NCBI GenBank assembly: GCA_963796285.1
Contig: CAWCKW010000012.1
Location: 704,001-768,000 of the forward strand
Length of the DNA stretch: 64,000 bases
Reading direction: 5' to 3'
DNA from: Nitrospirota bacterium
GTDB taxonomy: Bacteria > Nitrospirota > UBA9217
The notes under the pieces: model-generated
Seen by the model: the letters and a program-made list of their open reading frames with translations, nothing else
Databases searched by the model: none
Told to the model about the DNA's origin: nothing
Made by a program: the position numbers and the translations under genes
Shown here: in pieces, positions 29,655 through 57,205 of the stretch
Position numbering within the stretch: the first letter of the stretch is position 1
Layout of the letters: each line of letters begins with the position of its first letter

Positions 29655-30475
29655 TTACTTCCCCGACCTTTCCAACGACCTTTGCGAGAAAAGATCGTCC
29701 GCGAATTGTGTATGATACTTGATGCTTTCGATCGTTAACTCGGTCCGGTGATTCGTCTTTTTGTTCTCCATGTCCATCTTGAAAGGCGTCGGGATCCCGT
29801 CAATGGTCCTGATATCCGAAAAAACTCCGGTGCGATAAATAGCATTGTCCTGATAGTAATCGATCTTCAGATGGACCCAGAGGTCCTTTGCCACCCAGGC
29901 GATGTACTTGGTATATTTCCGGTGGATCTTCGGCGTCACTTCGACAACATAGCACGGTTTGCCGTCGATGACCTCTTCTTTCAAGATACTGAACTTGTAG
30001 TCATCCAGGTTCGGCGGCCCGCCGAAGTCATCGTACGAAAAATCAGACCCGAAGAACGAATCATCCTGAGAACTTGTGGCAATGCGCCGCACGCGCTTGT
30101 ACTCCGGGAAGTAGGCCCAGAGGTCGCGGTCGGAGAACGTATGGGCGTGGATCAGGAACCCGACGTTTTTCAGGTCCGGCGGAGAGTTGAATACGATGAG
30201 GACCTTATATGCCTCGGGGTCGGACTTCTTGCCATACTCCGTGAGCGTGCGCGTGCGCTTGCCGCCGCCCTTATCGAAGAGGACCATGGTCACTTCGGTC
30301 TTTCTGTCGAGAGACCTGGAGCGTTGCTCGTGGACCTTTTCATACACTTCGCGGCCGCTCATTGCGTTGGCGGGGGATGCAGAAGTCAGGAGCCAGGAGA
30401 CAGATATCAGGAGACAGAAGCACAAAGGACAGCCGGGAGATGAACAGACGAGGAGCAAAGCGTTTTTTGTGATGC
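29655..30475 (-). CDS. Outer-membrane lipoprotein-sorting (LolA-like) protein; start uncertain
   Basis: FNSPPDLKNVGFL, LWAYFPEYKRVRRI, SFFGSDFSYDD, FSQRSL; signal-like region overlaps a heptamer repeat. Confidence 0.8.
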
Positions 30476-30534
30476 ACGCCGAAGGCAGTAATATCTTTAT
30501 CTGACTTCTGTCTCCTGACTTCTGTCTTCTGGGT
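30380..30534. repeat. Inverted heptamer tandem-repeat element (CAGRAGH x6 / YCTGWCT x5)
   Basis: cagaagt caggagc caggaga cagatat caggaga cagaagc ... tctgact tctgtct cctgact tctgtct tctgggt. Confidence 0.8.
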
Positions 30535-30537
30535 TTC

Positions 30538-33129: not shown

Positions 33130-33240
33130 AATATCTTTCAAAAAAAAGAAGAAGTGTTGGAAGCGATTCACGAGTAACTTAAGAATTCAATTCTTAATAA
33201 AATATGGATCAACTATTAAGACGAAAACTTAAAGCACTGT

Positions 33241-33369
33241 CTCGCGCAATGGCCAAGTAGAGGGCCACACTGAGCCGCAAAGGCCGCAAAGAACGGCAAT
33301 AACAAAAGGGGCTTATTGTTTTAAATCAAGACTTCGAGACTTTCTTTGCGCCTTTGCGGCTTTGCGCGA
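33241..33369. repeat. Inverted 8/9-mer tandem-repeat element (CGCAAAG type)
   Basis: gccgcaaag gccgcaaag ... ctttgcgc ctttgcgg ctttgcgcga. Confidence 0.75.
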
Positions 33370-33385
33370 AAATGATTTGTCCGGT

Positions 33386-34078: not shown

Positions 34079-34252
34079 GCGTCACCTCGTTGTAACAATT
34101 CTAGCGGCTCGGTAACATGTTGTAAAGGTAAATCTGGTTCGCTGAGATGTGCCATTCCCGAAAATGATTTTTTACAATACGGGTAATTTGTGTTATAAGA
34201 AGCAGGTCAACATACGTCATGAAGAATTCAATTCTATCCAGGGAGGTGCTTT

Positions 34253-35417: not shown

Positions 35418-35435
35418 AACCGCGTCGCAGAAATT

Positions 35436-35670: not shown

Positions 35671-36213
35671 ATGAGTATAAAAGAAAAAGCCCTGATCCTC
35701 GACAAGGCCGGCATCGACCGGGCGCTTACGCGGGTAGCCCATGAGATCCTGGAAAAGAACAAGGGAGCCCGGGACCTTGTGCTCGTCGGCATCCAGCGCG
35801 GCGGTGTACACATTGCCAGGAGACTGTCGGTACGGATACACGAGATAGAAAGAGTAGAAGTGCCGGTGGGCAGTCTGGACATCACCATGTATCGCGATGA
35901 CCTTTCAACGCGCAAATCCCAGCCAGTTCCCCAGGCCACGGACATTACCTTTGATATTCAGGACAAGGTGATGGTGCTCGTGGATGATGTGATCTTTACG
36001 GGCAGGACCATCCGCGCGGCGCTGAACAGCATCATGGACTACGGCAGGCCGCGGTGCGTCCAGCTTGCGGTGCTCGTGGACCGGGGACACCGGGAACTTC
36101 CGATCCGCGCCGACTATGTGGGCAAGAACCTCCCGACCTCGGCAAAAGAGAAGGTGGAAGTGATGCTGGCAGAGGACGGAGTGGAAGAGAAGATAGTGAT
36201 ATTGGGAGAATAA
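35671..36213 (+). CDS. pyrR: Pyrimidine operon regulator / UPRTase PyrR
   Basis: [53 protein letters not shown]. Confidence 0.97.
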
Positions 36214-36216
36214 TCA

Positions 36217-36275
36217 CGGGTCAAGTAGCAAGGGTCATGGAATTCCTGAACCCTGGACCCCGGACCCTTAACCCT
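36217..36275. repeat. Inverted heptamer element (GGGTCAA / CCTGRAC)
   Basis: gggtcaa gtagcaa gggtcat gg-aatt-cctgaac cctggac cccggac ccttaac cct. Confidence 0.7.
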
Positions 36276-36288
36276 CAAAGGTTTAATT

Positions 36289-37218
36289 ATGACACTCAGC
36301 TCAAAAGATCTGCTCGGTATAAAAGGTATGACCGCGGACGAGATCACACTCATCCTGGATACGGCTTCAACGTTCAAGGACGTGTCCGAACGTGACATCA
36401 AGAAGGTCCCGGTGCTCCGCGGCAAGACCGTGATCAACCTCTTCTACGAGGCAAGCACGAGGACGAGGACCTCCTTTGAACTCGCGGGCAAGCGTCTGTC
36501 CGCAGACGTGATCAACATATCGACCTCTACCAGCAGCGTGGTCAAAGGTGAGACGCTCCTCGATACCGCCCGGAACATCGAGGCCATGAAGTGCGACATG
36601 ATCATCGTGCGCCATTCCTGTTCAGGCGCTCCGGAGTTTCTTTCAAAACGGCTGAAGAGCGCGGTGATCAACGCCGGCGACGGTTTCCACGAACATCCTA
36701 CGCAGGCGCTGCTCGATATGTACACGATACGCGAAAAACTCGGCAAACTCGAAGGGCTTACCATAGCGATCGTGGGCGACATTGCCCATAGCAGGGTGGC
36801 ACGGTCGAACATATACGGGCTCACGACCATGGGCGCGAAGGTCAGGGTCTGCGGGCCGCCGACCATGGTGCCTCCGGGCATTGAAAGCCTCGGGGCCCAG
36901 GTCTCTTACGACATGAACGCCGCTGTTGAAGGCGTGGACGTGGTCATGATGATCAGACTCCAACTCGAGCGCCAGACCGCCGGACTTTTCCCGGGCGTGC
37001 GCGAGTACGCGAGATTTTATGGTTTGAACCAGACGCGCGTCGAGCGGGCGGCAAAACACGTACTGGTGATGCACCCCGGCCCCATGAACCGCGGAGTGGA
37101 GATATCGTCCGAGGTCGCGGATGGGACACCCGTCATTCTTGATCAGGTGACGAACGGTGTGGCTGTACGGATGGCGGTGATGTACCTCTTATCGGGCGGC
37201 ATAAAGGCGGAGGCTTAA
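36289..37218 (+). CDS. pyrB: Aspartate carbamoyltransferase catalytic subunit
   Basis: [37 protein letters not shown]. Confidence 0.97.
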
Positions 37219-37240
37219 TAAAGGCAACTTCTTTTCAGGT

Positions 37241-37320
37241 GAAATGGAGAAAGAGGGGGAAAGGGTGGAAAAGACAGCATTCATTAAACCCCATTTCGCC
37301 GTTACTTCCCCCTTTTCCCT
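37241..37320. repeat. Degenerate inverted octamer element (purine arm / pyrimidine arm)
   Basis: gaaatgga gaaagagg gggaaagg gtggaaaa ... ccccattt cgccgtta cttccccc ttttccct. Confidence 0.5.
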
Positions 37321-37344
37321 AAGGAGATTTTGAATCAGGTGCTC

Positions 37345-38611
37345 ATGATGAATATCTTGATAAAAAATGGCCGCGTGATCGATCCGGCGAATAAGGTTGA
37401 CGAGAAACTCGATATCCTCGTATCGGACGGCAAGATCGCGAAGCTCGGCAAGCCGGGCTCGTTATCAGCTGATGGCTCGCAGGCGATCGATGCCGCGGGC
37501 AAACTCATCGTCCCGGGCCTCGTCGACATGCATGTGCATCTCCGTGAACCGGGGTTCGAGTATAAGGAAACGATCTCGACAGGTACCGCAGCGGCAAAGG
37601 CGGGAGGGTTCACCTCGGTCTGCTGCATGCCGAACACCAATCCGGTGAATGACAACCGCTCGATCACCGAGTTTATCCTGTCTCGGGCCAGAGAAGCGAC
37701 GGCGCGGGTCTACCCCATCGGAGCTATCACCAAGGGTTCCAGGGGCGAGGAACTGGCGGAAATGGGCGAACTGCATCAGGCGGGTTGCGTTGCCGTATCG
37801 GACGATGGCAAGCCGCTTATGAATGCGGCGCTGATGCGCCGTGCCATGGAGTATTCGAAGATATTCGATATCCTCATCATTTCCCACTGCGAAGACAGTG
37901 CGCTGTCAGACAAAGGGGTGATGAACGAAGGCAGGATTTCAACCGAGCTCGGGACTTCGCGGGATCCCTTGCGCGGCTGAGGACGTGATGACCAGCCGTG
38001 ACATCTCTCTCGCCGAGTTGACGGGATGCAGACTGCACATAGCCCACGTGAGCACTGCCGGTTCAGTGGGCCTGGTCCGTGAAGCGAAGAAGCGGGGCGT
38101 ACGGGTAACGGCAGAGACCTGTCCTCACTACTTTACGTTGACCGATGAGGCGGTCCGTGGTTACAATACCATGGCGAAGATAAATCCACCGCTCCGTACT
38201 GCCGAGGATGTAGCAGCGATCAAGCAAGGTTTGAAGGACGGGACCATCGATGTGATCGCCACGGACCACGCGCCTCACGGCATGGACGAGAAATCAGGCG
38301 AGTTCGATTACGCTCCATTCGGGATCGTCGGCCTCGAGACCGCGGTCGCTCTTACGCTCAGGCTGGTGGAGGAAGGGGTGCTTTCGTTTTCCGAAGCGAT
38401 CAGGAAACTGAGCATCAATCCATCGGCAATACTCAAAATCAGCGCGGGCAGTCTCGCACCAGGCTCGGATGGGGACATCACGATCATCGATCAAAGCGCT
38501 GCATGGATTGTCGATTCGGCACAGTTTAAATCAAAGTCCAGGAACACGCCGTTCAATGGATGGAAACTCACGGGAAGGGCAGTACAGACGATCGTGGGAG
38601 GGAAACTTTAA
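37345..38611 (+). CDS. pyrC: Dihydroorotase (apparent extra base near 37952)
   Basis: [20 protein letters not shown] | HIAHVST, ETCPHY, KINPPLR, ATDHAPH, SRNTPF. Confidence 0.93.
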
Positions 38612-39476
38612 TTGCGGATTTCGGATTGCGGATTGCGGATTGGAAGGGTGCTCGCTGTATTTTTCTGTGTTCTGGCTGCCTCGTCGGTTTTCGCAGTGCA
38701 GGACCAGCAAATACAACAGAAGCTTGCTGCGCTCGAAAAGATCCAGGGCAAGTTTACATTCATCGTTATGGGCGATAATCGCTCTGGTGATGATATCTAT
38801 AGGAAGCTTGTTTCCACTGGCGATGGAACGGAAGCCGGATTTCGTCGTGAATACGGGCGATATGATCGTGGCCCCCGGCAACAAACGGGAATGGGCCAAG
38901 TTCTGGGAAATGTCGAAGCCGATAAGCGTACCCTATTTTCTGACCGTGGGCAATCACGACGCGCACCCGAAGGTGCCGTTGAGCGAGAAAACATATAAGC
39001 AGGAAGTGGACCTCCCCGGGAATGAGCTGTATTATTCTTTTGTCGCTGGAAATTCGCTCTTTATTGTCCTCGACTCTTGTATGGAAAACCAGGAAAAGAG
39101 GATCATTGGCGGGCAATTCAAATGGCTCGAAGCCGTTCTCGTGAATTCGACGCAGAAACATAAATTCGTATTTCTGCACCATCCCTTGTACACCGATCTG
39201 GGGAAGGGGCATCACGCTCATGACAGCCTCGACAAGTATCCGGAAAGCAGGGACAGGCTCGAGGCGCTCTTTGCGAAGTGCAAGGTTGATGCGGTATTCG
39301 CGGGACATGAACATTATTATGAAAAACGGAGTGTTGACAATGTCCTCTATATCATTACCGGTGGAGGCGGAGCGCCGGTCTATGATAAGGAAGAATATGG
39401 CGGGTTTAATCATTTTGTTCAGATGTCTGTGGACGGGGACAAGGTGAGCGGGGAAGTCATCGATATCAACAGGTAA
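38612..39476 (+). CDS. Exported calcineurin-like metallophosphoesterase (apparent extra base near 38814)
   Basis: Signal-like N-terminus; GDNRSG | NTGDMI, GNHD, FLHHP, FAGHEHYYE, TGGGGAP. Confidence 0.85.
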
Positions 39477-39506
39477 GATGAGGGATCAGTTCTGATGCAA
39501 AAGAGC

Positions 39507-39588
39507 TCCTCACCGCGGCACTCTCCGCAGAGGGGCGAGGGTGATTCGTTGTTCATACTTCCAGGCGGAGAGGATTGAGTGCGGGGAG
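39507..39588. repeat. Degenerate palindromic element (CCTCACC..CTCTCC..GAGGG / GGAGAGG..GAG..GGGG)
   Basis: ctcctcaccgcggcactctccgcagaggggcgaggg ... ggcggagaggattgagtgcgggg. Confidence 0.45.
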
Positions 39589-39614
39589 ATTATGATGCTG
39601 GAAGGTAGATCAGG

Positions 39615-40745
39615 ATGAAAAAAGCGATACTTGCATTGGCAGATGGCATGGTGTTCGAGGGACACTCTTTTGGCGCGGAAGGCGAGGCTTCCGGCGAGGT
39701 GGTGTTCAACACGAGCATGACCGGATACCAGGAAATTCTTACCGACCCGTCGTACAAGGGCCAGATCGTTACCATGACCTCCACGCAGATCGGCAACTAC
39801 GGGGTGAACGACGAGGACGTGGAAGCCGCAAAACCGTACGTGGAAGGCTTCATCGTGAAGGAGTATCTCGACATCCCGAGCAACTGGAGGTCAACAAAAT
39901 CCCTCCACGAGTACCTCAAGGAAAGCGGCATCGTCGGCATCCAGGGAATCGATACCCGCGCGCTGACCCGTCACCTCCGCGATTTTGGCGCGCAGCCGGG
40001 GGTCATCACGACAAAGGACATGAAGCCCGAGAGTATCGTTGCCCGGGCAAAGGCGCTGCCGAACATGAGCGGCCTTGATCTGGTGAAAGAGGTCACGTGC
40101 AAAACAGCATATACGTGGGATGAAGGTGACTGGGACCTCAAGACCGGTTACAGCAGGAAGAGGTCTTCTCGCTATCATGTCGTGGCCTATGATTACGGCA
40201 TTAAGCGGAATATTCTGCGGCTCCTCACGGCAGCGGGATGCGATGTGACCGTTGTGCCTGCGACCATGCCGGCGGAAGAAGTGCTTGCCATGAAACCGGA
40301 CGGCGTATTCCTGTCGAACGGGCCCGGAGATCCTGAGCCGGTCAACTATGCTGTCGAGAACATCAAAAAGTTACTGGGCAGGAAGCCGATCTTCGGCATC
40401 TGCCTCGGACAGCAGCTCTTCGGTCTCGCCCTTGGCGGCAAGACCTACAAACTCAAGTTCGGGCATCATGGCGGCAATCAGCCGATCATGGACCTTTCCA
40501 CACGCAAGGTCGAGATCGCGGCGGAGAACCATGGCTTCGCGGTTGACTTGGAGACCGTGAAAGACAAAGTCGTCATGACGCACATGAACCTGAACGACAA
40601 TACCTGCGAGGGGATCCGGCATAAAACACTTCCTGCGTTTGCAGTACAGTATCATCCTGAGGCATCGCCGGGACCGCATGACAGCAGGTATTTGTTCGGC
40701 CGCTTTATTGATATGATGGAAAAAGAAAAGGAACGGAAAAACTAA
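39615..40745 (+). CDS. carA: Carbamoyl-phosphate synthase small subunit
   Basis: [46 protein letters not shown]. Confidence 0.97.
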
Positions 40746-40748
40746 TTT

Positions 40749-40835
40749 TCTCGCAAAGACGCAAAGTACGCAAAGAAAGGCGAAACTTCTAGTTTATTTG
40801 ACTTTAACCTTTGCGACCTTTGCGTCTTTGCGAGA
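40749..40835. repeat. Inverted 8/9-mer tandem-repeat element (CGCAAAG x3 arms)
   Basis: TCTCGCAAAGACGCAAAGTACGCAAAG ...33 nt... CTTTGCGACCTTTGCGTCTTTGCGAGA; arms 25/27 complementary. Confidence 0.85.
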
Positions 40836-40850
40836 GATAGAATTTGTTTC

Positions 40851-41756
40851 ATGGCTTTATTGATCTCAAATAATGAACTAAACGAACGCATTGACGCGGC
40901 CTACGAGCTTCTCGCATCCTGCCGCGTCTGCCCCCGCGAATGCGGGGTGAACCGGCTGAAGAACGACAAGCTCGGTTTCTGCCGGTCGGGGTTGAATCCA
41001 ATCATCTCGAGCGTGAGCCCGCATTACGGCGAGGAGCCTCCGCTCTCGGGCACTAAAGGTTCGGGCACGGTATTTTTCACCAACTGCAACCTCAGGTGTG
41101 TATACTGCCAGAATTACCCGATAAGCCAGATGGGGAACGGCGAGGAGCGGACACCGGGTGAACTCGCATGTCAGATGCTCTGGCTTCAGGAGCAGGGATG
41201 TCATAATCTGAACCTGGTGACCCCGACACATTTTGTGCCGCAGATCCTGAAGGCGCTCGGCATTGCAATGCAGCGTGGTTTCAATCTGCCGATCGTGTAC
41301 AACACGAGCGGGTACGAGTCGGTGGAAACCCTCACTCTGCTCGACGGCATCGTCGACATTTATCTTCCGGACATGCGATACTCCGACAACGCCGCTGCAA
41401 TGAAGTACTCCATAGCCCCTGATTATCCGGAGATCAATCGCGCGGCGATAAAAGAGATGTATCGGCAGGTCGGGAACCTTGTCCTTGATGAGCAAGGGGT
41501 CGCCAGACAGGGTTTGATCATCCGGCATCTTGTCCTGCCCGGCAACATTGCGGGGACAGAACGAGTGATGAAGTTCCTTGCCGAGGAAATATCGACAGAC
41601 GTCTCTATCAGCCTCATGTCCCAGTATTTCCCGGCATACCGTGCCAGGGAGTTTCAAGAGATCAACAGAAGGATCACGACCGAAGAGTATGAGAAGGCCT
41701 ACCAGATCATGCTGAAGTATGGGCTGGAGAACGGGTGGGTACAGGAACACGAATAA
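40851..41756 (+). CDS. Radical SAM protein, PflX-like
   Basis: CRVCPRECGVNR, HYGEEPPLSG, CNLRCVYCQN, NLNLVTPTH, IIRHLVLPG. Confidence 0.9.
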   Translation: MALLISNNELNERIDAAYELLASCRVCPRECGVNRLKNDKLGFCRSGLNPIISSVSPHYGEEPPLSGTKGSGTVFFTNCNLRCVYCQNYPISQMGNGEERTPGELACQMLWLQEQGCHNLNLVTPTHFVPQILKALGIAMQRGFNLPIVYNTSGYESVETLTLLDGIVDIYLPDMRYSDNAAAMKYSIAPDYPEINRAAIKEMYRQVGNLVLDEQGVARQGLIIRHLVLPGNIAGTERVMKFLAEEISTDVSISLMSQYFPAYRAREFQEINRRITTEEYEKAYQIMLKYGLENGWVQEHE

Positions 41757-41764
41757 AAAACATT

Positions 41765-41950
41765 CACCACGGAGACGTAGCCTGCTCTTGCGAGGACGCG
41801 GCCATAAACGGAGACGCGGAGAAACGATCTCTTTAACAGGATGGACAGGATAAGATCTGATTTGATGGTATATATTAAATCCGTCAATTCTGTTATTCCG
41901 TCTGATAAAGTCTTTAGAATTTCTCTGCGACCTCTGTGTTCTCTGCGGTA
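41765..41950. repeat. Nested inverted nonamer elements (CACGGAGAC type outside, ACAGGAT type inside)
   Basis: caccacggagac..ggagacgcggaga [aacaggatg gacaggat ... aatccgtc aattctgtt attccgtc] tctctgcga cctctgtgt tctctgcggt. Confidence 0.7.
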
Positions 41951-41985
41951 AAAATAGATTTGTTTTAGTTTGTGAGGGGAATTGA

Positions 41986-44900
41986 ATGCCGAAACGGACA
42001 GACATTAAAAAGATCCTTATCATCGGTGCGGGGCCGATCGTGATCGGCCAGGCCTGCGAGTTCGACTACTCCGGTGTGCAGGCCTGCAAGGCGCTCAAGG
42101 AAGAAGGGTACGAGATCGTGCTCGTGAACTCGAACCCGGCAACGATCATGACAGACCCTGACATGGCTCACCGCACCTATATCGAACCGATCACGCCTGA
42201 GGTGGTCGCGAAGATCATTGAACGCGAGCGGCCCGACGCCCTGCTCCCGACCATGGGCGGCCAGACCGCGCTCAATACGGCGGTGTCCCTGGCCGAATCA
42301 GGGGCGCTCGAGAAATATCACGTCGAGCTTATCGGCGCAAAGCTGCCTGCCATCAAAAAAGCGGAAGACCGCGAACTGTTCAAGAAGGCGATGGAAAATA
42401 TCGGGCTCGAGGTGCCGAAGAGCGGGTTCGCAACGAGCAAGGAACAGGCCTATGAGATCCTCGAAAAGGTCGGATTTCCCGCCATCTTGCGGCCGGCGTT
42501 CACGCTCGGAGGCACGGGCGGCGGCATTGCGTACAACCGTGAGGAATTTACCGAACTGATCACGCGCGGCCTTGAAGCAAGCCCGGTCAAACAGGTGCTG
42601 GTCGAAGAATCGGTCATGGGGTGGAAAGAGTTCGAACTCGAGGTCATGCGCGACACCAAGGACAATGTGGTGATCGTCTGTTCTATCGAGAACCTGGACC
42701 CGATGGGGATCCACACCGGCGACAGCATCACGGTGGCGCCGGCGCAGACGCTCACTGATAAAGAGTATCAGCTCATGCGCGATGCTTCTCTCAAGATCAT
42801 CCGCGAGATCGGCGTGGACACCGGCGGGTCGAACATCCAGTTCGGGGTCAACCCCGTGGACGGCAGAATGGTCGTGATCGAGATGAACCCGCGTGTTTCA
42901 CGGAGCTCGGCGCTTGCTTCAAAGGCCACCGGCTTCGCCATCGCCAAGATCGCGGCAAGGCTCGCGGTAGGCTATACCCTTGACGAGATCACGAACGACA
43001 TCACAAAAGCCACACCGGCATCGTTCGAGCCGACCATCGACTATGTCGTAGTGAAGTTTCCGCGTTTTGCCTTTGAGAAGTTCCCCCAGGCTGATGCGAC
43101 GCTCACGACGCAGATGAAGTCCGTTGGGGAGGCCATGTCCATCGGCAGGACCTTCAAGGAATCGTTCCAAAAGGCGCTTCGCTCGCTCGAGATCGACCGC
43201 TACGGACTCGAGTCGCGCCGTGACCGTGACGGTGAGGAAGAACACGGGATCGCCGATATTCGCCAGAAGATCAGCGTGCCGAACTGGGAGCGGATATGGT
43301 ACATCGCAGACGGTTTCCGAGTCGGGATGACCGTGGACGAAGTATTCAGCCTTTCCAAGATCGACCCCTGGTTCCTGCATCAGATCAAGCAGATCACCGA
43401 TATGGAAAAAGAGATCCGTGACAATGGGGCACGCATAGTAAGCGATAAGGATCCTTCGATCGATCATCCTCTCAGGCGCGCGAAAGAATACGGTTTCTCG
43501 GACCGCAGGCTTGCCAAGCTTCTTACGACCACTGAAAGCGCCGTGAGAAAGTTGCGGATGGAGCTCGGCATTATCCCCGTGTTCAAGACCGTGGACACCT
43601 GCGCCGCCGAGTTTGAGGCGCATACGCCGTATCTGTATTCAACGTATGAGAAGCCGTTTTACAACCTTGGGAGCCAGGAGCCAGGAGCCAGGAGCCAGAA
43701 TGCGGAATGCGAGGCGAATCCGACGGGCCGCAAGAAGATCGTTATCCTCGGCGGGGGACCGAACAGGATCGGACAGGGCATCGAGTTCGACTACTGCTGT
43801 GTGCACGCGGCCTTCGCGCTCAAGGAAGACGAGTTCGAGACCATTATGGTGAATTGCAATCCCGAGACCGTGAGCACGGACTACGATACCGCGGACCGGC
43901 TTTATTTTGAGCCCTTGACACTCGAAGATGTTTTACATATTATACATCGCGAGAAGCCTGTTGGAGTGATCGTGCAGTTTGGGGGCCAGACGCCGCTCAA
44001 GCTCGCGGTGCCGCTCGAGAAAGAGGGAGTGCGCATCCTCGGCACCTCACCCGACAGCATTGACCGCGCTGAGGACCGCAAACGGTTCAAGGACCTTATC
44101 GATAAGCTCGGTCTACTACAGGCCGAGAGCGGCACGGCCGTCTCCTGCGATGAAGCGGTGCATGCCGCTAATCGTATCGGATACCCCGTCATGGTGCGGC
44201 CGTCCTACGTGCTCGGCGGCAGGGCCATGGAGATCGTCTACGACGAAGAGAGCGTAAGAAATTACATGTCCCGCGCCGTGAAGGCATCCCCGGACCGTCC
44301 CGTTCTCGTTGACAAGTATCTGGAAGACGCTATCGAGATGGACGTTGATGCGATCTCCGACGGGACCACCGTGGTCGTCGCGGGCATCATGGAGCATATC
44401 GAGGAGGCGGGCGTACACTCAGGAGATTCTGCGTGTTCGCTTCCACCGTTCTCGCTCCCGCCGGACATCATCCGTGAGATCGACCGTCAAGCCCGGGTGC
44501 TTGCGCTCGAGCTCGGTGTGGTCGGCCTCATGAACATACAGTTCGCGGTTAAAGAGGGCAGGATCTACGTGCTCGAGGTGAACCCCCGGGCGTCGCGGAC
44601 AATACCATTCGTGAGCAAGGCCATCGGAGTGCCGCTTGCCAAACTTGCCGCAAGGGTCATGGCGGGCAAGACCCTCGTTGAACTCGGATTCACCAAAGAA
44701 GTGCAGATCAAACATATCGCGGTCAAGGAAGCGGTGTTCCCCTTTGCCAAGTTCCCCGGCGTGGACACACTGCTCGGCCCGGAGATGAAGTCCACCGGCG
44801 AGGTCATGGGTATTGACGCGGACTTTGGCATGTCCTTTGCCAAGTCCCAGATGGCGGCCGGGAACCCCCTGCCGATAACCGGCCGTGTGTTCCTGAGCGT

Positions 44901-45279
44901 AAAGGACCAGGACAAGTCCGGCGGACTGCTTGAGGCGGCGCAAGGACTACAGAATGCCGGGTTCTCCATTGTAGCGACAAGAGGAACGGCAGAGTATCTG
45001 AGGAAACAGGGCATTACGGTCGAAACAGTGAACAAGGTGGCGGAAGGCAGGCCGCATATCGTTGACCGTATTACGGACATGCAGATCGATCTGGTGATCA
45101 ACACGGTATCAGGCGCGGAGTCGCAAAAAGACTCTTACTCAATCCGGCGCACGACGCTCGTGAAGGGGGTCCCCTATTTCACCACGATATCTGCAGCGAA
45201 GGCCGCGGTCCGGGGTATTTCAGCGATCAAAACAAGACCTTTGCAGGTCAAGACCATTCAGGAGTATCATACGAAATGA
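41986..45279 (+). CDS. carB: Carbamoyl-phosphate synthase large subunit
   Basis: [61 protein letters not shown]. Confidence 0.98.
43670..43711 (+). repeat. In-frame heptamer repeat inside carB: (GGAGCCA)x4 (GAATGCG)x2
   Basis: Encodes [14 protein letters not shown] at the junction of the two synthetase halves. Confidence 0.85.
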
Positions 45280-45758
45280 CTCAGAAGATCCCCATGACCA
45301 AAGAGGGCTACGAGAAGCTTAAAAAGGAGCTTGACCGCATTCTCAAAGTCGAGCGTCCCAAGAACATCAGGGATATTGAGGAAGCACGCGGACACGGAGA
45401 CCTGTCGGAGAACGCCGAGTACCACGCAGCCAAGGAAAAGCAGGGTATGCTTGACGCCAAAAAGCGTGAGTTGCAGCACAAACTTGCGCATGCGCAGATC
45501 ATCGATATCTCGAAGCTTTCGAACGAGAAGGTGGTTTTCGGAGCGACGGTCACGCTTGCGGACACTGATTCCGGCGACACCAAGAAGTACATGCTGGTAG
45601 GGCAGGAAGAGGCTGATTTTAAAAAGGGCAAGATATCCATACAATCACCTGTCGGCAAGGCCCTGATCGGACATAAAGCGGGTGATGTCGTCTCTATCAA
45701 GACGCCGACAAAGACCGTTGAATATGAGATTCAGGAGATTGAGATAACCCTTGATTAA
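45276..45758 (+). CDS. greA: Transcription elongation factor GreA
   Basis: [38 protein letters not shown]. Confidence 0.97.
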
Positions 45759-46566
45759 GCTGCACAAGGCAACGATACTTTCACACCGATCTGCGGGCAG
45801 GGGATATTACCGTCTCGTGTTGAAGGCCCCGGAGGCGGCGGTGAACGCGCTCCCGGGCCAATTCGTGATGCTTAGGGTGTCCGAGAACATGGACCCTCTC
45901 CTCGCTCGACCCTTCGGCATATCTTCCATTCCTTCAAAAGCATCCATCGAGATTCTCTACCGCGTCGTAGGCACTGGAACAGCGCTGCTTACCCAAAGGT
46001 CGGTCGGCCAGACGCTCTCACTGCTCGGGCCGCTTGGAAACGGGGTTCCCGATGCCGGATAAAACCGTCACGCCGGTTCTGGTTGCCGGTGGAAGCGGTT
46101 TTCCTCCGCTGCATTTTCTGTCCCTTCGCACTGGTACGCGGGCGCATTTTTTCGTCGGGGCACGGAACAAAGAGTGTCTGCCGCCTATAAGTGTTTTAAA
46201 AAAGTCTCAGGGACCATGCGGTAAAGGTACATGTTGCGACAGAGGATGGGAGCTCAGGACAACAAGGGATGTCCACGGACATACTGAATTCCTTCCTGAC
46301 GCACGAAAGAGCAGAAGACCCATCTCGTGCTCTATGCCTGCGGTCCCCATGGCATGCTTGCCGAGGTGAGCAGGATCGCTGCGGAGCATTCGATCACCTG
46401 TTATGTCTCGACAGAGGAACGCATGGCCTGCGGACTTGGAGCATGTATGGGCTGCTCGGTCCCGATGAAGGCGGGCGGTTACAAACGCGCCTGCAAAGAG
46501 GGGCCCGTGTTTGATTCGCGGGAGATCGAGTGGGCGGAGCAGGTGATGGTGAAGTTGAGAAGGTAA
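45751..46566 (+). CDS. pyrK: Dihydroorotate dehydrogenase electron-transfer subunit (about 3 apparent frameshifts)
   Basis: PGQFVML, LARPFGI, LGPLGNG|F, VAGGSG, |VATEDGS, |YACGP, EERMACGLGACMGC, CKEGPVF. Confidence 0.88.
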
Positions 46567-46569
46567 TCA

Positions 46570-46713
46570 GATTGCGGAAGTTGCGGAGTGAGGAGTAAAA
46601 TTGCAAATGACATCATGCGAAATACAAATATATAGATGCGGATTAAAAATGACCGAATGCGGAGCCAGACATGATCGGTAAACAATCCGCAATCCGCAAT
46701 CCGCAATCCGCAA
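46570..46713. repeat. Inverted heptamer element; right arm (AATCCGC)x4 lies inside the pyrD 5' end
   Basis: gattgcg gaagttgcg gagtgag ... gaatgcg ... aatccgc aatccgc aatccgc aatccgc aatc. Confidence 0.8.
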
Positions 46714-47633
46714 TCGGCCCCACCGACCTTTCTATCGACTTCGCCGGGATCAAGCTCAAGAACCCGGTGCTGACCGCATCAGGCACGTTCGGATACGGTG
46801 AAGAGTTTGCGGATTTTGTGGATTTGAACAAGCTCGGCGGCGTGATCGTGAAGGGTGTATCGCTCAAACCGATCAAGGGCAACCCTCCGCCACGCATCTG
46901 GGAGACGCCTTCGGGCATGCTGAACGCAATCGGGCTTGAGAACCCGGGCGTTGATGTGTTCATCAACCAGAAACTCCCCTACCTGAGGCAGTTCGACACC
47001 GCGGTGATCGTGAACGTTTTCGGGTACAGCCTGGAAGAGTACGTCGGCGTTGTGGAGCGGCTTGACAATGTTTCCGGCGTATCGGGCATTGAAGTGAACA
47101 TCTCGTGCCCGAATGTGAAAGCCGGCGGGATTGTATTCGGCACGAACGTCAAGGCGGCCTTCGAACTCCTCTCCGCTGTCCGAAAGGCAACGAAACTGCC
47201 GGTCATCGCGAAGCTTTCGCCGAACGTGACCGATATCACCGAATTTGCCCGGATCGCACGCGAGGCTGGCTGTGACGGCCTTTCGCTCATCAATACGCTC
47301 CTCGGCATGGCCATCGACGTGCGCTGCCGTAAGCCGCGGCTCGCGAACTGTACCGGCGGCCTGTCCGGTCCGGCCATCCGGCCCGTGGCTGTGCGCATGG
47401 TATGGCAAGTGGCGAAGGCGGTTCCGCTTCCGATCATCGGCATGGGCGGAATAGTTACTGGCGAGGATGCGCTTGAATTCATTCTGGCAGGAGCTTCAGC
47501 GGTGGCAATCGGGACAGCGAATTTCATCAATCCACGGGCCACGCTTGACGTGATCGAAGGGATCGAGGTTCTCATGCGTGAGCAGGGCGTCGGCGATATA
47601 AAGAGCCTTATCGGAAAGGTGAGTGTCGGGTGA
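46671..47633 (+). CDS. pyrD: Dihydroorotate dehydrogenase (class 1B)
   Basis: ASGTFGYG, GMLNAIGLENPG, NISCPNV, KLSPNVTDI, GGLSGPAIRP. Confidence 0.96.
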   Translation: MIGKQSAIRNPQSAIGPTDLSIDFAGIKLKNPVLTASGTFGYGEEFADFVDLNKLGGVIVKGVSLKPIKGNPPPRIWETPSGMLNAIGLENPGVDVFINQKLPYLRQFDTAVIVNVFGYSLEEYVGVVERLDNVSGVSGIEVNISCPNVKAGGIVFGTNVKAAFELLSAVRKATKLPVIAKLSPNVTDITEFARIAREAGCDGLSLINTLLGMAIDVRCRKPRLANCTGGLSGPAIRPVAVRMVWQVAKAVPLPIIGMGGIVTGEDALEFILAGASAVAIGTANFINPRATLDVIEGIEVLMREQGVGDIKSLIGKVSVG

Positions 47634-49771: not shown

Positions 49772-50653
49772 ATGAAAAAAGAACTTCTGGAGAATTTCCT
49801 CAATTATGTTGCCGTCGAAAAGGGGCTTGCGCGGAATACCGTCGAGTCCTATGAGAGGGACCTACACAAGTACTTTTTCTTTATGAAGGCAAAGGAACCC
49901 GACGCGATCACCCGTTCCGATGTGGTCTCATTCATGACACATCTGACATCAGAAGGAATCTCCACCCCCTCGGCCGCCCGATGCCTGGCCGCAGTCAGAG
50001 GATTTCACAAATATCTGATGACCGACGAACACGCACACGACGACCCTACCGTGAATATCGATACGCCCCGAGGATGGAAACGCCTGCCCAAGACCCTTTC
50101 TCTTGCCGATGTGGACGCGCTTCTCAGACAACCGGACCCTGCCACTCTTATCGGGCTTCGCGACAAGGCCATGCTTGAACTGCTCTATGCCACCGGCCTT
50201 CGCGTGAGCGAACTGGTCGATCTCAAACTGAACGATGTCAACCTCGAACGGGGATACCTGGTTGTGATAGGTAAAGGGTCGAAGGAACGGGCCGTGCCCA
50301 TGGGTGAGATTGCCATGGCTGCGCTCTCCCGGTATCTCAGTGCAGGGCGTGCCGCTCTCTTGAAAGGCAGTGATTCCGACACCCTGTTTATCAGTTCGAG
50401 GCGCAGGGGTATAACCCGTCAGATGTTCTGGAAACGTATCAAGCACTATGCGGTAAAAACCGGAATCAGAAGAAACATCTCACCGCATACACTGCGCCAT
50501 TCCTTTGCAACGCATTTGCTTGATAACGGCGCCGACTTGCGGGCGGTACAGGCCATGCTTGGCCATTCGGATATTTCCACGACGCAGATCTATACGCAGG
50601 TTTCACGCGAACGGCTCAAGAAGGTGCATGAGAAATATCATCCGAGAGGGTAA
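49772..50653 (+). CDS. xerD: Site-specific tyrosine recombinase XerD
   Basis: EKGLARNTVESYERDL, RDKAMLELLYATGLRVSEL, GKGSKER, SPHTLRHSFATHLL, LGHSDISTTQIYT, HPR end. Confidence 0.95.
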   Translation: MKKELLENFLNYVAVEKGLARNTVESYERDLHKYFFFMKAKEPDAITRSDVVSFMTHLTSEGISTPSAARCLAAVRGFHKYLMTDEHAHDDPTVNIDTPRGWKRLPKTLSLADVDALLRQPDPATLIGLRDKAMLELLYATGLRVSELVDLKLNDVNLERGYLVVIGKGSKERAVPMGEIAMAALSRYLSAGRAALLKGSDSDTLFISSRRRGITRQMFWKRIKHYAVKTGIRRNISPHTLRHSFATHLLDNGADLRAVQAMLGHSDISTTQIYTQVSRERLKKVHEKYHPRG

Positions 50654-50657
50654 ATGC

Positions 50658-50794
50658 ATTGCGGAATTTGGATTGCGGATTGCGGAATGAAGAACAAGAA
50701 TGGAGCTTGCGTATTTCGGATTGTAGCATAAAGGATAAGCGGACACGTGATTCAAAGGGTTTCAATCCGCATTCCGCAATCTGAAATCCGCAAT
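50658..50794. repeat. Inverted heptamer element (ATTGCGG / CAATCCG)
   Basis: attgcgg aatttgg attgcgg attgcgg aatg ...about 73 nt... caatccg cattccg caatctg aaatccg caat. Confidence 0.85.
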
Positions 50795-53440: not shown

Positions 53441-53464
53441 GGAAAATGCAGGCATAGTACCGTC

Positions 53465-55105
53465 ATGATATTCATCAGCCTCTTCGGCGGGATGCTTCTC
53501 CTGCTCTACGGTATCAAGCTCCTGAATGACGGCCTTCAGAATGCCGTAGGCCCGAAGATCCGATCGCTCCTCCGGTCGCTCACGAGCAACAGACTCGCCG
53601 CAGTGGGTGGAGGCGCATTCATCACCGGCCTTATCCAATCGAGCAGCGCAACGTCGGTCATGCTGGTGGGTTTCGTGAGCGCCGGTCTCATGAGTTTCCA
53701 TCAGACCCTCGCGGTCATCCTCGGCGCCGATATAGGCGCCACGCTCACGGTACAGCTCATTGCCTTTCACGTCTACGATTACGCAGTGCTCCTTGTCGGG
53801 ATAGGTCTGTCCTTCACGCTCTTTGCCAAAAAGATGCTCTTCAAAAATATCGGCCAGGGCGTGCTCGGTTTTGGCTTTGTGTTCCTCTCGATCAAGATCA
53901 TGATCGAGGCAATGACACCGCTCCAGGGGAACGAGTTGTTCCGGCAGGTTTTCATCGCGCTCACCGATACACCGCTTATCGGCATCGTGCTCTCGGCCGG
54001 CGTAACGGCCCTCATCCATAGCAGTGCGGCGACCATGGGCATCGCGCTCGTCCTTGCCACGAGCGGTCTGATACCGCTTCCCGCCGCGATCTATATCATC
54101 CTCGGCGCCAACATCGGCACCTGCGCCACTGCGTTCCTCGCGAGCCTGCGCTCGCCTGTCGAGGCGCGGCGCGTGGCCTGGGCGCATCTGCTCTTTAAAG
54201 TATTCGGCGTTCTGCTGTTTCTGCCGCTCCTCATCCCCTTCGCGCAGCTGGTCACTGCAACGACCCCGGACCTTACCCGTCAGATCGCAAATGCCAATAC
54301 GCTGTTCAACGTCATCATGGCCGTGGTCTTCCTCCCTTTTATCGGGCCATTCTCGAGATTGGTCATGAAACTGGTGCCTGAAGAGGAGGAGGAGAAAAAG
54401 GTCGGGCCCAGGTACCTTGACGAGCACGTGCTCGGTACGCCCGCGCTTGCGCTGGGACAGGCGAGCCGGGAGGCGCTCCGGGTTTCCGATATTGTGCGCG
54501 AGATGCTGGTCGATGCGATCCCTGTTTTTCAGACCGATGATCCTGCTTCCATAGCTGCCATAAAGAACAAGGACAACCTGATAGACCTCCTGGACCGGCA
54601 TATCCGGCTTTACATCACCCGGTTGTCGTCGTCTCCCATTACCGAGACCCAGTCACGGCGCTCGATGGCTGTGCTCGAGATTTCACGCAATCTGGAGAAC
54701 ATCGGCGACATCATCGACCGGAACATTATGCCGCTTGCGATGAAGCGGATCAGCAAGGGGATCACGTTCTCCCGGGAGGGATTGGACGAGATCATCCTCT
54801 TTCACAAGAAAGTCATTGAAAATTTCGATACCGCGATCTCGGCATTCGCGGGCAACGACCGGGTCCTTGCGGACCAGGTGCTCCGGAACAAGGAAGAACT
54901 CGGCATGATGGAGCGAGAGCTGGTCCAGGCGCATCTCGACAGGCTCCGCAAAGGGTTCCGGGAATCCATCGAGACGAGCCACATCCATCTTGACCTCATC
55001 GGCAACCTTGCGCGCATCAATTCGCTTATTACGCACATCATCTATCCGATCATTGATGAAAAACGCAACAGGGTGCATGATGAAGTGGGGATCGAGGAGC
55101 ATTAG
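53465..55105 (+). CDS. Na/Pi cotransporter family protein with PhoU-like C-terminus
   Basis: IQSSSATSV, ILGADIGAT, IHSSAA, LGANIGT, NLENIGD. Confidence 0.92.
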   Translation: MIFISLFGGMLLLLYGIKLLNDGLQNAVGPKIRSLLRSLTSNRLAAVGGGAFITGLIQSSSATSVMLVGFVSAGLMSFHQTLAVILGADIGATLTVQLIAFHVYDYAVLLVGIGLSFTLFAKKMLFKNIGQGVLGFGFVFLSIKIMIEAMTPLQGNELFRQVFIALTDTPLIGIVLSAGVTALIHSSAATMGIALVLATSGLIPLPAAIYIILGANIGTCATAFLASLRSPVEARRVAWAHLLFKVFGVLLFLPLLIPFAQLVTATTPDLTRQIANANTLFNVIMAVVFLPFIGPFSRLVMKLVPEEEEEKKVGPRYLDEHVLGTPALALGQASREALRVSDIVREMLVDAIPVFQTDDPASIAAIKNKDNLIDLLDRHIRLYITRLSSSPITETQSRRSMAVLEISRNLENIGDIIDRNIMPLAMKRISKGITFSREGLDEIILFHKKVIENFDTAISAFAGNDRVLADQVLRNKEELGMMERELVQAHLDRLRKGFRESIETSHIHLDLIGNLARINSLITHIIYPIIDEKRNRVHDEVGIEEH

Positions 55106-55182
55106 GAGCGAGAGATAGGGGATGTGGGACGAAGGATGAATGATGTCAGGCCTTGCCGTATCCATCATATAAGGGGGTTTGC

Positions 55183-55581: not shown

Positions 55582-55629
55582 GAAGCAGTAATCAGGAGTC
55601 AGGAGATACCGCTGGTAGTCGCAGACACT

Positions 55630-55800
55630 TGCTTCCGCGTTTGACGTACACCTTGGCCTTGGCGTCGCGTACTTCGATCTCCAGGACGACAAATATGCTG
55701 AAAGAGAATTATCTAAAGCTGTCGAGATCAATCGCTGAAAAAAGGTATCCTGGCTTCTTATGAAGAATTCGAGCGCGGGTGGAAGAGAGTCGTTCGAGTA
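55630..55800 (+). pseudogene. Possible TPR-protein remnant
   Basis: Unlisted frame reads DVHLGLGVAYFDLQDDKYAERELSKAVEINR*, a TPR-like helix pair with no start codon. Confidence 0.4.
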
Positions 55801-56069
55801 ATCTCGCTGCGGAGATAAATAACGAGATAACTCCTAAAGCCAATATATACAATCCAAATAGAGCCAAAGTTCAGCCACAAAGGCTCCATGACACATAAAC
55901 CAGTGAATGAATTTATTCGTGCTTTGGCCTGTCCCCGGCGGATTCTGTCAGGGGTGGGTCGGTGTTGCCCTCTTCTCGGCCATTGTGGCATAGTTGGTCC
56001 CGGTTTATCCGGGCTGGAATTTCGTGATATGAATTTGGAATTTGCACCATCATATGGTACTATCCCGTC

Positions 56070-57113
56070 ATGACTTCACCGGTTGCAGAATCCCTTACCA
56101 TTACCGATTTCGACTTTGACCTTCCCAAGTCTCTCATTGCGCAGGAGCCATCCTTGCAAAGGGACCGTTCACGCCTTTTGGCCCTCAATCGCTCTACCGG
56201 CAATATGGCGCATCGCATTTTTACGGACATCGATCAGTATCTTCTTCCCGGAGACCTGTTGATCATAAATGACACGAAGGTTTTCCCGTGCAGGCTTCCG
56301 GCAACAAAGCCTGGGGGCGGCAGGGCTGAGATATTTCTCCTGTTTGAACGAAGACGGAACCTCTGGGAAGTGCTGGTGAAAGGCTGCGGCACTGCCGGGA
56401 AGAGGCTGCGCATCACCGATGGCGTGGAGGCTGAGATCACCGGGGAGGGAGTTGACAGCGTCAGAACTGTACGCTTTCACGGTATCGAAGACATCAGGTC
56501 AATTCTACCTGAGATCGGGAAAACCCCGCTTCCACCTTATATAAAGCGTGAAGCGGATAAAGTTGACCAGGAGCGTTATCAGACCGTATACGCGGCTCAT
56601 GAAGGTGCGGTTGCGGCGCCTACAGCGGGTCTGCACTTCACCGGGGAACTGCTTCAACGGCTGACGACAAAGGGAATTGAGATTGCCACGGTCACACTCC
56701 ACGTGGGTCCTGGTACGTTCCAGCCTGTCCGTATGCAAACGATCAGTGAACATCGTATGCTGCCTGAGCGGTACTCGATTACCGAGAACTCCGCTCAGCG
56801 AATCAATCGCGCAAAGGCCGAAGGCAGGCGGGTGATCGCCGTGGGGACCACAAGCGTGCGAACGATCGAAACCGCTGCGGCCGGCAGCAACAGGGTCGCG
56901 CCCGGAGATAGCAGCTCGGAGCTGTTCATCTATCCCGGATATTGTTTCACGGTCACGGACGGCATCATCACCAATTTTCATCTGCCGAAGTCCACGCTCC
57001 TCATGCTGGTGTCTGCATTTGCCGGCAGGGAGCGGACCCTCTCGGCCTATCGCACGGCAATAGCCGAAAAGTATCGCTTTTACAGTTATGGAGACGCGAT
57101 GATCGTTGCCTAG
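56070..57113 (+). CDS. queA: S-adenosylmethionine:tRNA ribosyltransferase-isomerase
   Basis: DFDFDLPKSLIAQEP, PLPPYI, RYQTVYA, AAPTAGLHF, LHVGPGTF, TNFHLPKSTL, YRFYSYGDAM. Confidence 0.97.
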   Translation: MTSPVAESLTITDFDFDLPKSLIAQEPSLQRDRSRLLALNRSTGNMAHRIFTDIDQYLLPGDLLIINDTKVFPCRLPATKPGGGRAEIFLLFERRRNLWEVLVKGCGTAGKRLRITDGVEAEITGEGVDSVRTVRFHGIEDIRSILPEIGKTPLPPYIKREADKVDQERYQTVYAAHEGAVAAPTAGLHFTGELLQRLTTKGIEIATVTLHVGPGTFQPVRMQTISEHRMLPERYSITENSAQRINRAKAEGRRVIAVGTTSVRTIETAAAGSNRVAPGDSSSELFIYPGYCFTVTDGIITNFHLPKSTLLMLVSAFAGRERTLSAYRTAIAEKYRFYSYGDAMIVA

Positions 57114-57205
57114 AGCAGAGAGCTTAGGGCATGGAGAAGAGGATAGAGAATTGAGCGCAAAGGCAAAGGGTTATGCTCCATGCCCCTTGCGCCATGCTCT
57201 CTGCC
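57112..57205. repeat. Inverted heptamer element (AGAGCAT / ATGCTCT)
   Basis: agagcag agagctt agggcat ggag ... atgctcc atgcccc ttgcgcc atgctct ctgc. Confidence 0.75.

Follow-up and report, generated by a model that had tools for sequence, protein, structure and literature searches.

Tandem-armed inverted-repeat elements at gene junctions of a Nitrospirota genome: two cargo-linked arm types and their turnover between close relatives

What are the short repeats that occupy so many gene junctions in this stretch of DNA? The 64,000-nucleotide window analysed here (G000:C12:704001-768000; 54.8% G+C) comes from a Nitrospirota genome of 3.58 Mb in 13 contigs, whose CarA protein has its closest named relatives in Nitrospirota metagenome-assembled genomes (MAGs), at 82-85% identity. 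Many of its gene junctions carry arrays of tandem 7- to 9-nt units, often followed after a spacer by the reverse-complement array. A reading made from the sequence alone had listed 13 such sites and proposed a mobile or gene-capture system. We found that the elements have defined ends and two cargo-linked arm types, and that, over short times, they come and go, are replaced and change position. The window elements probably derive from two related classes of palindromic cassette, either without the gene, as halves or in nested form. Class 1 would have arms of about four to five tandem 7-nt units and carry, in its full form, a four-helix-bundle gene (TIGR02436 / PF05635, Avd-related); class 2 would have arms of about three tandem 8-10-nt units with the core CRCRRAG and carry, in its full form, a GxxExxY gene (TIGR04256 / PF13366, Pfam PDDEXK_3).

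Inspection of the sequence located the described arrays at all 13 listed sites, which are named below by their first position and collected in Table 1. Tandem Repeats Finder detected the arrays given there, including one inside carB at 43670 that was absent from the earlier list; it raised no flag at 55105, 55582 or 57112, nor at two left arms that are degenerate, those of 41765 and 46570. The arms of the elements measure 25-34 nt with 76-93% complementarity, and the four longest of 61 inverted pairs in the window all correspond to listed elements (50658/50761, 34 nt, 85%; 30380/30501, 31 nt, 84%; 40749/40809, 27 nt, 93%; and 30393/30505); the element at 30380 has arms of 27-31 nt, 84-89% complementary, around a spacer of about 90 nt. 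As RNA, six of the nine two-armed sites (30380, 33260, 40747, 41760, 46568 and 50656) fold clearly better than shuffled sequences, with z scores from -3.8 to -8.3. Rfam returned no match at gathering score for any element, and no rRNA in the window; at E<=1 the sole match was a spurious plant microRNA model on the 40749 hairpin, at 36 bits versus a gathering score of 70.

The excess of arrays that the sequence-only reading led one to expect was found genome-wide. With a dinucleotide shuffle in 1-kb blocks as the control, period-7 arrays of at least three copies numbered 230 versus 12, and period-8 arrays 61 versus 6. An inverted partner within 300 nt (score >=24) was present for 163 of the 429 merged arrays and a direct partner for 13; within 2.5 kb and at a score of at least 28, inverted partners were found for 133 arrays, versus 4 in the reverse-only and 12 in the complement-only control. 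These 133 arrays reduce to 97 two-armed elements, 72 of them with a spacer of 0-100 nt.

The two arms are ordered. The left arm is purine-rich in 82 of the 97 two-armed elements and pyrimidine-rich in 6, several of which are cross-pairs between neighbouring elements. When pairs of strict CRCRRAG x3 arrays within 600 nt were compared, the motif preceded its complement (purine then pyrimidine) in 22 cases and followed it in none. Because an inverted repeat looks alike from either strand, this means that the motif always reads towards the centre, as expected for the defined ends of a unit and not for independent arrays; in both proposed classes, the repeat reads 5'->3' inward from either end, which makes the 5' arm purine-rich on both strands. 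Array length is constrained, with a peak at 4-5 copies for 7-nt units (median 30 nt) and at 3 copies for 8-nt units (24 nt); for 9-nt units the median is 26 nt.

The sequence-only reading held that architecture rather than sequence is conserved, unlike a repetitive extragenic palindrome (REP) or a miniature inverted-repeat transposable element (MITE). Neither part can be upheld: single units recur throughout the genome (AATCCGC in 25 arrays, ACTCCTG in 19, AAAGACGC in 18 and AAATTGG in 17), and the elements form dispersed, multi-copy sequence families, which makes them REP- or MITE-like in that respect. By BLAST, single window elements match between 0 and 39 other genome loci, with 11-17 loci at 70% or more of the length for some. 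The element at 33241 has 39 other loci, 17 of which span at least 70% of it, that at 40749 has 29 and also occurs in many places in 18 family genomes, and that at 38611 has 26, whereas no second copy was found in the genome for 17427 or 57112. At least 81 distinct canonical heptamer units exist in this one genome.

The earlier remark that such arms flank four-helix-bundle and GxxExxY genes turned out to be true of this genome and of its family. The genome holds six matches to PF05635 (four-helix-bundle, '23S IVS protein', after the intervening sequence, IVS, of 23S rRNA) and three PF13366 (GxxExxY) loci, with profile scores of 122.8 bits (TIGR02436) for the four-helix-bundle protein and 140.6 bits (TIGR04256) for the GxxExxY protein. 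Inverted tandem arms lie on both sides of three of the six PF05635 genes and of all three PF13366 genes, and the other three PF05635 genes have a one-sided array. No significant PDB match was obtained for the GxxExxY protein in a sequence search (best E 0.11).

We extended this to a census of 30 GxxExxY and 30 four-helix-bundle loci in 21 family genomes, in which each gene's left flank was aligned with its right flank in reverse complement; three of the four-helix-bundle loci were lost, one at a contig edge and two that tblastn did not relocate. Arms at a score of at least 28 were found in 27 of 30 GxxExxY loci, where the better of two controls gave 4, and in 18 of 27 four-helix-bundle loci, where it gave 2. 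The period of the arms follows the cargo: it is 8-10 nt in 22 of the 27 armed GxxExxY loci and 7 nt in one, and 7 nt in 14 of the 18 armed four-helix-bundle loci (Fisher p = 2e-7, which overstates the significance, since the genomes are related to each other and are not independent samples). The GxxExxY arms share the core CRCRRAG, seen as CGCAAAG, CGCAGAG, CACAGAG, CACGAAG and CACGGAG.

By these features, 33241, 40749 and both layers of 41765 are of the GxxExxY type, and 17427, 30380, 36217, 38611, 43670, 46570 and 50658 are of the four-helix-bundle type. The GxxExxY gene at C12:1321463 is flanked by TCTCGCAAAGACGCAAAGGGCGCAAAG and its reverse complement, which are the arms of the 40749 hairpin; judged by the TCTCGCAAAG... 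arms present in both, 40749 is a gene-less twin of the GxxExxY cassette C12:1321404-1321875. Gene-less copies prevail, with 110 CRCRRAG x3 arrays versus three GxxExxY loci in the genome. Nameable open reading frames (ORFs) in spacers of 300-450 nt all belong to the two cargo families, and where a 'spacer' is longer, it consists of ordinary genes (by their sequence purA-like, rpe-like, hisH-like and others) lying between two separate hairpins of the same family. As the cargo inside arms is limited to two gene families and the longer spacers hold housekeeping genes, this is not a gene-capture system, and that part of the sequence-only reading is abandoned. No transposase was found between any arms. 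Three genomes that have neither cargo family (G010, G011 and G039, 86-89% complete) hold one CRCRRAG array each and no CAGRR array; family genomes bearing GxxExxY hold 7-165 CRCRRAG arrays. Array numbers in these genomes thus track whether cargo genes are there, with the exceptions given below.

How stable these elements are was seen in comparison with genome G004, which is about 94% identical to ours (96-98% coding identity in pyrR, pyrB and carA; 90-96% across whole blocks). The alignment of the two genomes breaks exactly at the elements. Among 11 comparable sites, three are the same (36217, identical; 37241, almost identical; 57112, about 92% conserved), 33241 is of the same family but diverged, six have a different unit or family, and one, 55105, is cargo-filled in G004; with the last two groups together, seven of the 11 sites differ at this level of identity, and orthologous junctions are thus not invariant. 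In G004, the junctions of 30380 and 40749 carry an element with another unit (GCGGAGT-type) and another element, respectively; the units of 38611 are all AGTGCGG- or AGTCCGG-like; 41765 differs; a single GCGGAGT-type arm stands between pyrK and pyrD, at 46570, with a different PyrD N-terminus; and a GCATAGCGCAAAG-type hairpin takes the place of the ATTGCGG element at 50658. Filled and empty states were found at one orthologous junction: where the window has the remnant at 55105, G004 has a cassette of about 500 nt with GGGACGA-type inverted arms and a frameshifted PF05635 gene (33.7 bits). The nested 41765 element, 193 nt, matches the G004 carA/radical-SAM junction in inverted orientation (80% identity, E 2e-40) and has no other full-length copy in its own genome.

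Other relatives extend this picture. In G008, the carA/radical-SAM junction (an 8-nt gap), the junction after pyrC and the pyrK/pyrD junction are bare, and a GGGTCA-type element is kept at pyrR/pyrB, as it is in L004, which also holds an element similar to 37241. At the C12:1321404 junction, both arms read CGCAAAG in our genome and CGCAGAG in G004, and the enclosed GxxExxY gene is far more diverged than its flanks; at this place G003 and G007 show hairpins that lack a gene and belong to other families, and the ORF present in G008 is unrelated. At the C12:142705 junction, a four-helix-bundle gene is present in our genome only, and all five other genus genomes with the region have gene-less hairpins with NNCAGRR arms. 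In more distant relatives (70% CarA identity), no elements were found at the operon junctions compared.

The elements sit where operon genes meet. In line with the proximity to stop codons claimed from sequence, 11 of the 13 window elements start within 10 nt of the upstream stop, at gaps of -2, -1, 0, 0, 3, 3, 3, 3, 4, 8 and 10 nt, with 33241 (16 nt) and 37241 (22 nt) as the exceptions; the next start, where callable, lies 6-35 nt past the element. Across the genome, for which our statistics rest on crude ORF-based gene calls, 78 short elements comprise 68 at co-directional, 8 at convergent and 2 at divergent junctions, and the background shares are 81%, 9.6% and 9.7%. Because they lie mostly in gaps from stop codon to ribosome-binding site between co-directional genes, the elements would be transcribed within operon mRNAs. 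Relatives that lack elements have stop-to-start gaps of 8-40 nt, so the apparent targeting of stop codons may simply reflect the sole tolerated place; selection against other sites would look alike. Unpaired single arms (125 non-coding arrays at co-directional junctions) have a weak strand bias, with the sense strand purine-rich in 64, pyrimidine-rich in 42 and neutral in 19 (p = 0.04).

Two sites reach into coding sequence. The array in carB is read in frame in a linker that is hypervariable in the protein alignment, being absent in L027 and of differing length and sequence in L001, L003, L047 and L007; tolerant coding linkers are thus a further place where heptamer arrays settle. At pyrD, the sole in-frame start (ATG, 46671) lies inside the spacer of the 46570 element, so the right arm is translated as PyrD residues 5-16; tblastn matches of PyrD in relatives start at residue 19.

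Several observations weigh against cassettes that spread and pair with their cargo. Three of the nine two-armed sites fold weakly relative to shuffles (37239, z -2.2; 57110, z -1.2; 36215, z -0.8), and the bias to stop codons, clear in the window, is noisy genome-wide with the crude gene calls, 21 of 84 distances lying within 0-10 nt. In the census, 9 of 27 four-helix-bundle and 3 of 30 GxxExxY loci have no arms at the threshold. Across genomes, heptamer (CAGRR) arrays are weakly linked to four-helix-bundle genes (Spearman 0.38); in G016, 76 CAGRR matches occur but four-helix-bundle matches at E<=1e-10 are lacking, and in G036, 26 CRCRRAG arrays occur but GxxExxY is lacking. The CRCRRAG count correlates with GxxExxY at 0.79 and with four-helix-bundle genes at 0.73, and because these values are nearly equal, genome-level correlations fail to show a specific pairing of arm and cargo. 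The junctions compared, whose boundaries are blurred by divergence, showed neither a target-site duplication nor a defined point of insertion, and no transposase was found. Finally, at one orthologous junction, six genus genomes carry graded NNCAGRR variants, which fits in-place change as well as replacement.

The last point belongs equally to the main rival, local slippage and templating as the sole explanation, which we judge unlikely. By this account, the arrays are immobile and are born and reshaped where they stand, through slippage in permissive gaps, fold-back or hairpin-templated copying of one arm onto the other and selection for the stem, and the cargo genes are separate insertions. 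Besides the graded units, it would explain why the 38611 units are all altered alike in G004, why the change from CGCAAAG to CGCAGAG is found in both arms of one cassette junction, the narrow distribution of array lengths, the frequency of single arms and the in-frame array within carB. It does not easily explain the identical 23-24-nt arms that occur at many loci inside single genomes (G015 and G013) and point to recent copying, nor the 31-nt array in L013 that is identical to the 38611 array and lies at another junction. Whole elements with their spacers recur at 11-17 loci, the 193-nt nested composite, including its spacer, is inverted at a different junction in G004, and the 22-to-0 polarity is hard to obtain from independent slippage. 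We therefore prefer derivatives of two cassette classes that would spread by a copy mechanism; between copying events, the arms would be remodelled by slippage on the spot and by repair in which one arm serves as template for the other. Slippage and arm-to-arm templating probably act as well.

Paired arrays could alternatively be binding sites of a global DNA-binding regulator such as integration host factor (IHF) or HU, as suggested for Geobacter metallireducens. That report (Aklujkar et al. 2009, PMC2700814) describes three classes with 24, 21 and 8 pairs of tandem octa- or heptanucleotide repeats on opposite strands at variable spacing, consisting of five heptamers or three 8/9-mers, some with insertion sequence (IS) elements beside them. 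The likeness is close: both are intergenic and have arrays of three to five tandem units of 7-9 nt, with a partner array on the other strand at a variable distance, the unit numbers are equal, and two of the three consensus units match window units in reverse complement, TCTCCGTS[Y] matching the reverse complement of CACGGAGAC and MTYCTGA matching CTCCTGA, the reverse complement of TCAGGAG. The Geobacter repeats belong to another phylum, however, and the paper, in the part available, makes no connection with hairpin RNA, with mobility or with either of the four-helix-bundle and GxxExxY families. Regulator sites seem to us very unlikely here, given the at least 81 distinct heptamer units in one genome, pairing and period that are kept between relatives where sequence is not, the avoidance of divergent (promoter) gaps (2 of 78), and sites that are lost, replaced or bare in close relatives with the operon unchanged.

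REPs and the paired REPINs, together with their REP-associated tyrosine transposases (RAYTs), and MITEs are dispersed intergenic hairpins in hundreds of copies, a few of which are full copies with a gene enclosed by these repeats. The window elements resemble them in being intergenic, multi-copy and mostly gene-less hairpins with rare coding copies between the same repeats and few occurrences in divergent gaps. It is nevertheless scarcely probable that they are REP or REPIN palindromes mobilised by a RAYT (Y1 transposase), or ordinary IS-family MITEs. The arms are tandem arrays of many unit dialects and not one conserved palindrome, neither a Y1 nor an IS transposase is associated with them or lies between them, and no target-site duplication was seen. 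The genome has two Y1_Tnp matches, neither with a tandem array within 1.5 kb, and the intact one is flanked by an unrelated palindrome. This Y1 transposase gene (C13:80663-81028) has a CAGCAGAGCTGCTG-type palindrome on both sides and resembles a RAYT that comes with a REP of its own, neither being related to the elements with tandem arms.

Cyanobacterial short tandemly repeated repetitive (STRR) sequences are tandem heptamers in intergenic DNA and have been described as direct arrays. Integron gene cassettes were considered and rejected, since the arms here stand on both sides of a gene, the elements are dispersed singly and the cargo is limited to two families; the xerC/D-like gene of the window (49772-50653) has ordinary Phage_integrase and SAM_1 domains. 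A comparable heptamer excess is that of the GGGAATC repeats of Xanthomonas and the GGGGA(C/T)T repeats of Nostoc (Rehm et al. 2015, PMC4692102), which likewise exceed expectation, are mostly intergenic, include convergent pairs of arrays and form few arrays between divergent genes. They differ in having one G-rich unit per genome, read as forming G-quadruplexes (G4), and in lying between the same ORFs in 90% of cases in two Xanthomonas pathovars, whereas seven of 11 sites differ here at about 94% identity. A G-quadruplex or other non-B DNA regulatory repeat is a most improbable account of the window elements, for although that study reports Xanthomonas arrays as 89-93% intergenic, with 70-75 convergent pairs per genome, nearer to the 5' neighbouring ORF and forming G4 in vitro (PMC4692102), most units here have no G runs (CGCAAAG, TTAGTTC, ATTGCGG, CAGAAGT) and arm complementarity is the conserved property.

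What might the elements do? According to a study of Coxiella burnetii (PMC4990558), the 23S IVS has tandem GACAGAT heptamers at its 5' end just upstream of the S23p ORF, with a copy number that varies among strains; cleavage by RNase III within the stem was demonstrated experimentally, the ORF is decaying, and Leptospira is cited there too. In that description, a small four-helix-bundle gene lies between the terminal inverted repeats of a long stem, and the window elements also have stem-forming terminal inverted repeats; a GACAGAT-like unit occurs in the arms of cassette C12:142705. The differences are that the window elements are found between protein-coding ORFs or at their ends and not in a 23S rRNA helix (9, 25 or 45), that no window element holds an S23p / PF05635 ORF, which copies elsewhere in our genome and in G004 do carry, and that a second class exists here, with 8-10-nt units and a different cargo gene.

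By analogy with the heptamer-armed IVS, elements that fill the short gap from stop codon to ribosome-binding site, mostly between co-directional genes, would be carried in operon mRNAs; the operon RNA would fold into a stem of 20-35 bp, RNase III would cut it, and the transcript would be split or destabilised. Our genome has an RNase III gene, and RNA-level punctuation by the stems is plausible on this analogy. A further proposal, possible though doubtful, is a selfish element of a new kind with an 'arm code', in which the cargo proteins would provide the specificity and drive the copying of cassettes and, in trans, of the far commoner gene-less copies. The four-helix-bundle protein, a pentamer, would recognise about five 7-nt units and the GxxExxY protein, of nuclease fold, three 8-10-nt CRCRRAG units; the proteins would act on extruded hairpins or on RNA, and the copies would enter gaps between stop codon and ribosome-binding site.

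Parts of this are in print already, in the Geobacter (2009), Xanthomonas (2015) and Coxiella IVS (2016) papers; in the parts available, neither the Geobacter nor the Xanthomonas paper ties its repeats to the two gene families or to IVS. A full-text literature search found no link between heptamer repeats and the GxxExxY or four-helix-bundle families or IVS, though one of the papers found may make it.

Table 1. Tandem-repeat elements of the window, with the arrays detected by Tandem Repeats Finder (start, unit length, copies) and the z score of the RNA fold
Position	Element	Strand	Setting	Arrays detected	Fold z
17427..17467	single-arm heptamer array, TTAGTTC x4.9		10 nt past stop of HD-domain gene, between convergent genes	17427 (7 nt x4.9)	
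30380..30534	two-armed heptamer hairpin, CAGAAGT / CAGGAGA		3 nt from stop of macB-like gene (minus strand)	30387 (7 nt x4.4); 30500 (7 nt x4.6)	-3.8
33241..33369	two-armed hairpin of 8/9-nt class, GCCGCAAAG / CTTTGCGS		16 nt from stop of ABC ATPase gene (minus strand)	33274 (9 nt x2.0); 33344 (8 nt x3.0)	-4.7
36217..36275	short two-armed heptamer element, GGGTCAA type		between pyrR and pyrB	36245 (7 nt x3.4)	-0.8
37241..37320	degenerate two-armed element, purine-rich then pyrimidine-rich		between pyrB and pyrC	37249 (9 nt x2.4)	-2.2
38611..38642	single-arm heptamer array, ATTGCGG x4.6	+	begins at final base of pyrC stop codon	38611 (7 nt x4.6)	
40749..40835	near-perfect hairpin of 8-nt class, TCTCGCAAAG ACGCAAAG TACGCAAAG / reverse complement		carA to radical-SAM gene	40752 (8 nt x3.0); 40807 (9 nt x3.1)	-8.3
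41765..41950	nested composite, outer arms CACGGAGAC / CTCTGCG, inner arms of ACAGGAT class		radical-SAM gene to carB	41921 (9 nt x3.0)	-4.6
43670..43698	perfect heptamer array, GGAGCCA x4.1	+	in frame in carB (41986-45279), linker joining CarB halves	43670 (7 nt x4.1)	
46570..46716	two-armed heptamer element, GATTGCGG... / CAATCCG x4.7		after pyrK	46683 (7 nt x4.7)	-5.3
50658..50794	two-armed heptamer element, ATTGCGG family, 34-nt arms 85% complementary		xerC/D-like gene to CCA-adding-enzyme-like gene	50658 (7 nt x4.1)	-6.6
55105..55165	heptamer cassette remnant, GGGACGA / GGATGA-type left arm, short right-arm trace		Na/Pi cotransporter gene to UPF0047 gene		
55582..55612	weak single arm, about two CAGGAGT units	+	directly 3' of UPF0047 stop		
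57112..57205	two-armed degenerate element, AGAGCAG / GGGCATGGAG ... CTCCATGCCC / GCTCTCTGC		overlaps queA stop codon		-1.2

Some sites have features of their own. The left outer arm of 41765 holds a conserved module of about 33 nt (GTAGCCTGCTCTTGCG...GCGCGGCCATAAAC; window 41775-41810), which in a sub-family of the 8-nt class lies between left-arm units 1 and 2. It recurs at six or more loci of our genome (C13:466897, C13:302830, C12:1855604, C13:24870, C12:177014 and C13:429489) and is mostly one-armed, which leaves an asymmetric bulge. The weak arm at 55582 is kept in G004 as far as a large indel starting at 55615; in 55615-55732, G004 is longer by about 1.1 kb, an ORF, of which the window retains a short internal piece, and the alignment marks this as a deletion in the window lineage, starting just past the weak array.

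A search of sequencing runs found 20 with sequence that matches the window, one of them RNA (0.14 share of words). Dozens of unrelated metagenome contigs end in or bridge the ATTGCGG arrays (38611-38642, 46683-46716 and 50760-50794); they come from peat, soil and wetland metagenomes and one soil RNA run, and their loose ends agree only at 0.37-0.45. The ATTGCGG unit is therefore dispersed across many loci or organisms in such communities. Contig joints that link 38641, 46684 and 50760 were considered as rearrangements and rejected; they are other ATTGCGG-armed loci.

The pyrimidine operon (35671-47633: pyrR, pyrB, pyrC, a metallophosphoesterase gene, carA, a radical-SAM gene, carB, greA, pyrK and pyrD) is flanked on both sides by further housekeeping genes. 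In the assembly, which as a MAG contains single-base indel errors, pyrC appears split (37330-37980 / 37985-38611), pyrK lies in three pieces (45751-46566), and the metallophosphoesterase gene is split as well. Contigs from three DNA runs lack one base at 37950, 38814-38819, 46042, 46204, 46304 and 49612 (at 37950, every contig there from runs X1, X2 and X5), and the splits in the three genes are on that account read as single-base assembly errors, probably not pseudogenes. Upstream of pyrR, a PyrR-binding attenuator (RF00515, 35433-35556) scores 52.3 bits, slightly below the gathering score of 54, and is probably real given the operon context. Elsewhere in the window, Rfam places group II intron domains at 20346-20742 (RF02001, 125.6 bits; RF01998, 71 bits), followed by a 323-aa ORF at 20771-21742, and 20346-21742 is probably a group II intron with its reverse transcriptase. 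An ORF of 2639 aa occupies 1066-8985 on the minus strand.

In practice, the arms create false ORF extensions by supplying start codons and N-termini, as at pyrD, they break assemblies (contigs of G002 end at a cassette) and they draw unrelated reads. For the biology, this locus presents the paired repeats of Geobacter, the heptamer excess of Xanthomonas and Nostoc and the heptamer-armed 23S IVS as one phenomenon with two cargo-specific arm types, and as one still evolving between genomes that are nearly identical. Processing of the stems, if it takes place, would make them a widespread, unannotated layer of operon punctuation; the arm code, if true, would account for the long-noted heptamer excess of bacteria, for where rRNA intervening sequences came from and for what two very large orphan gene families do.

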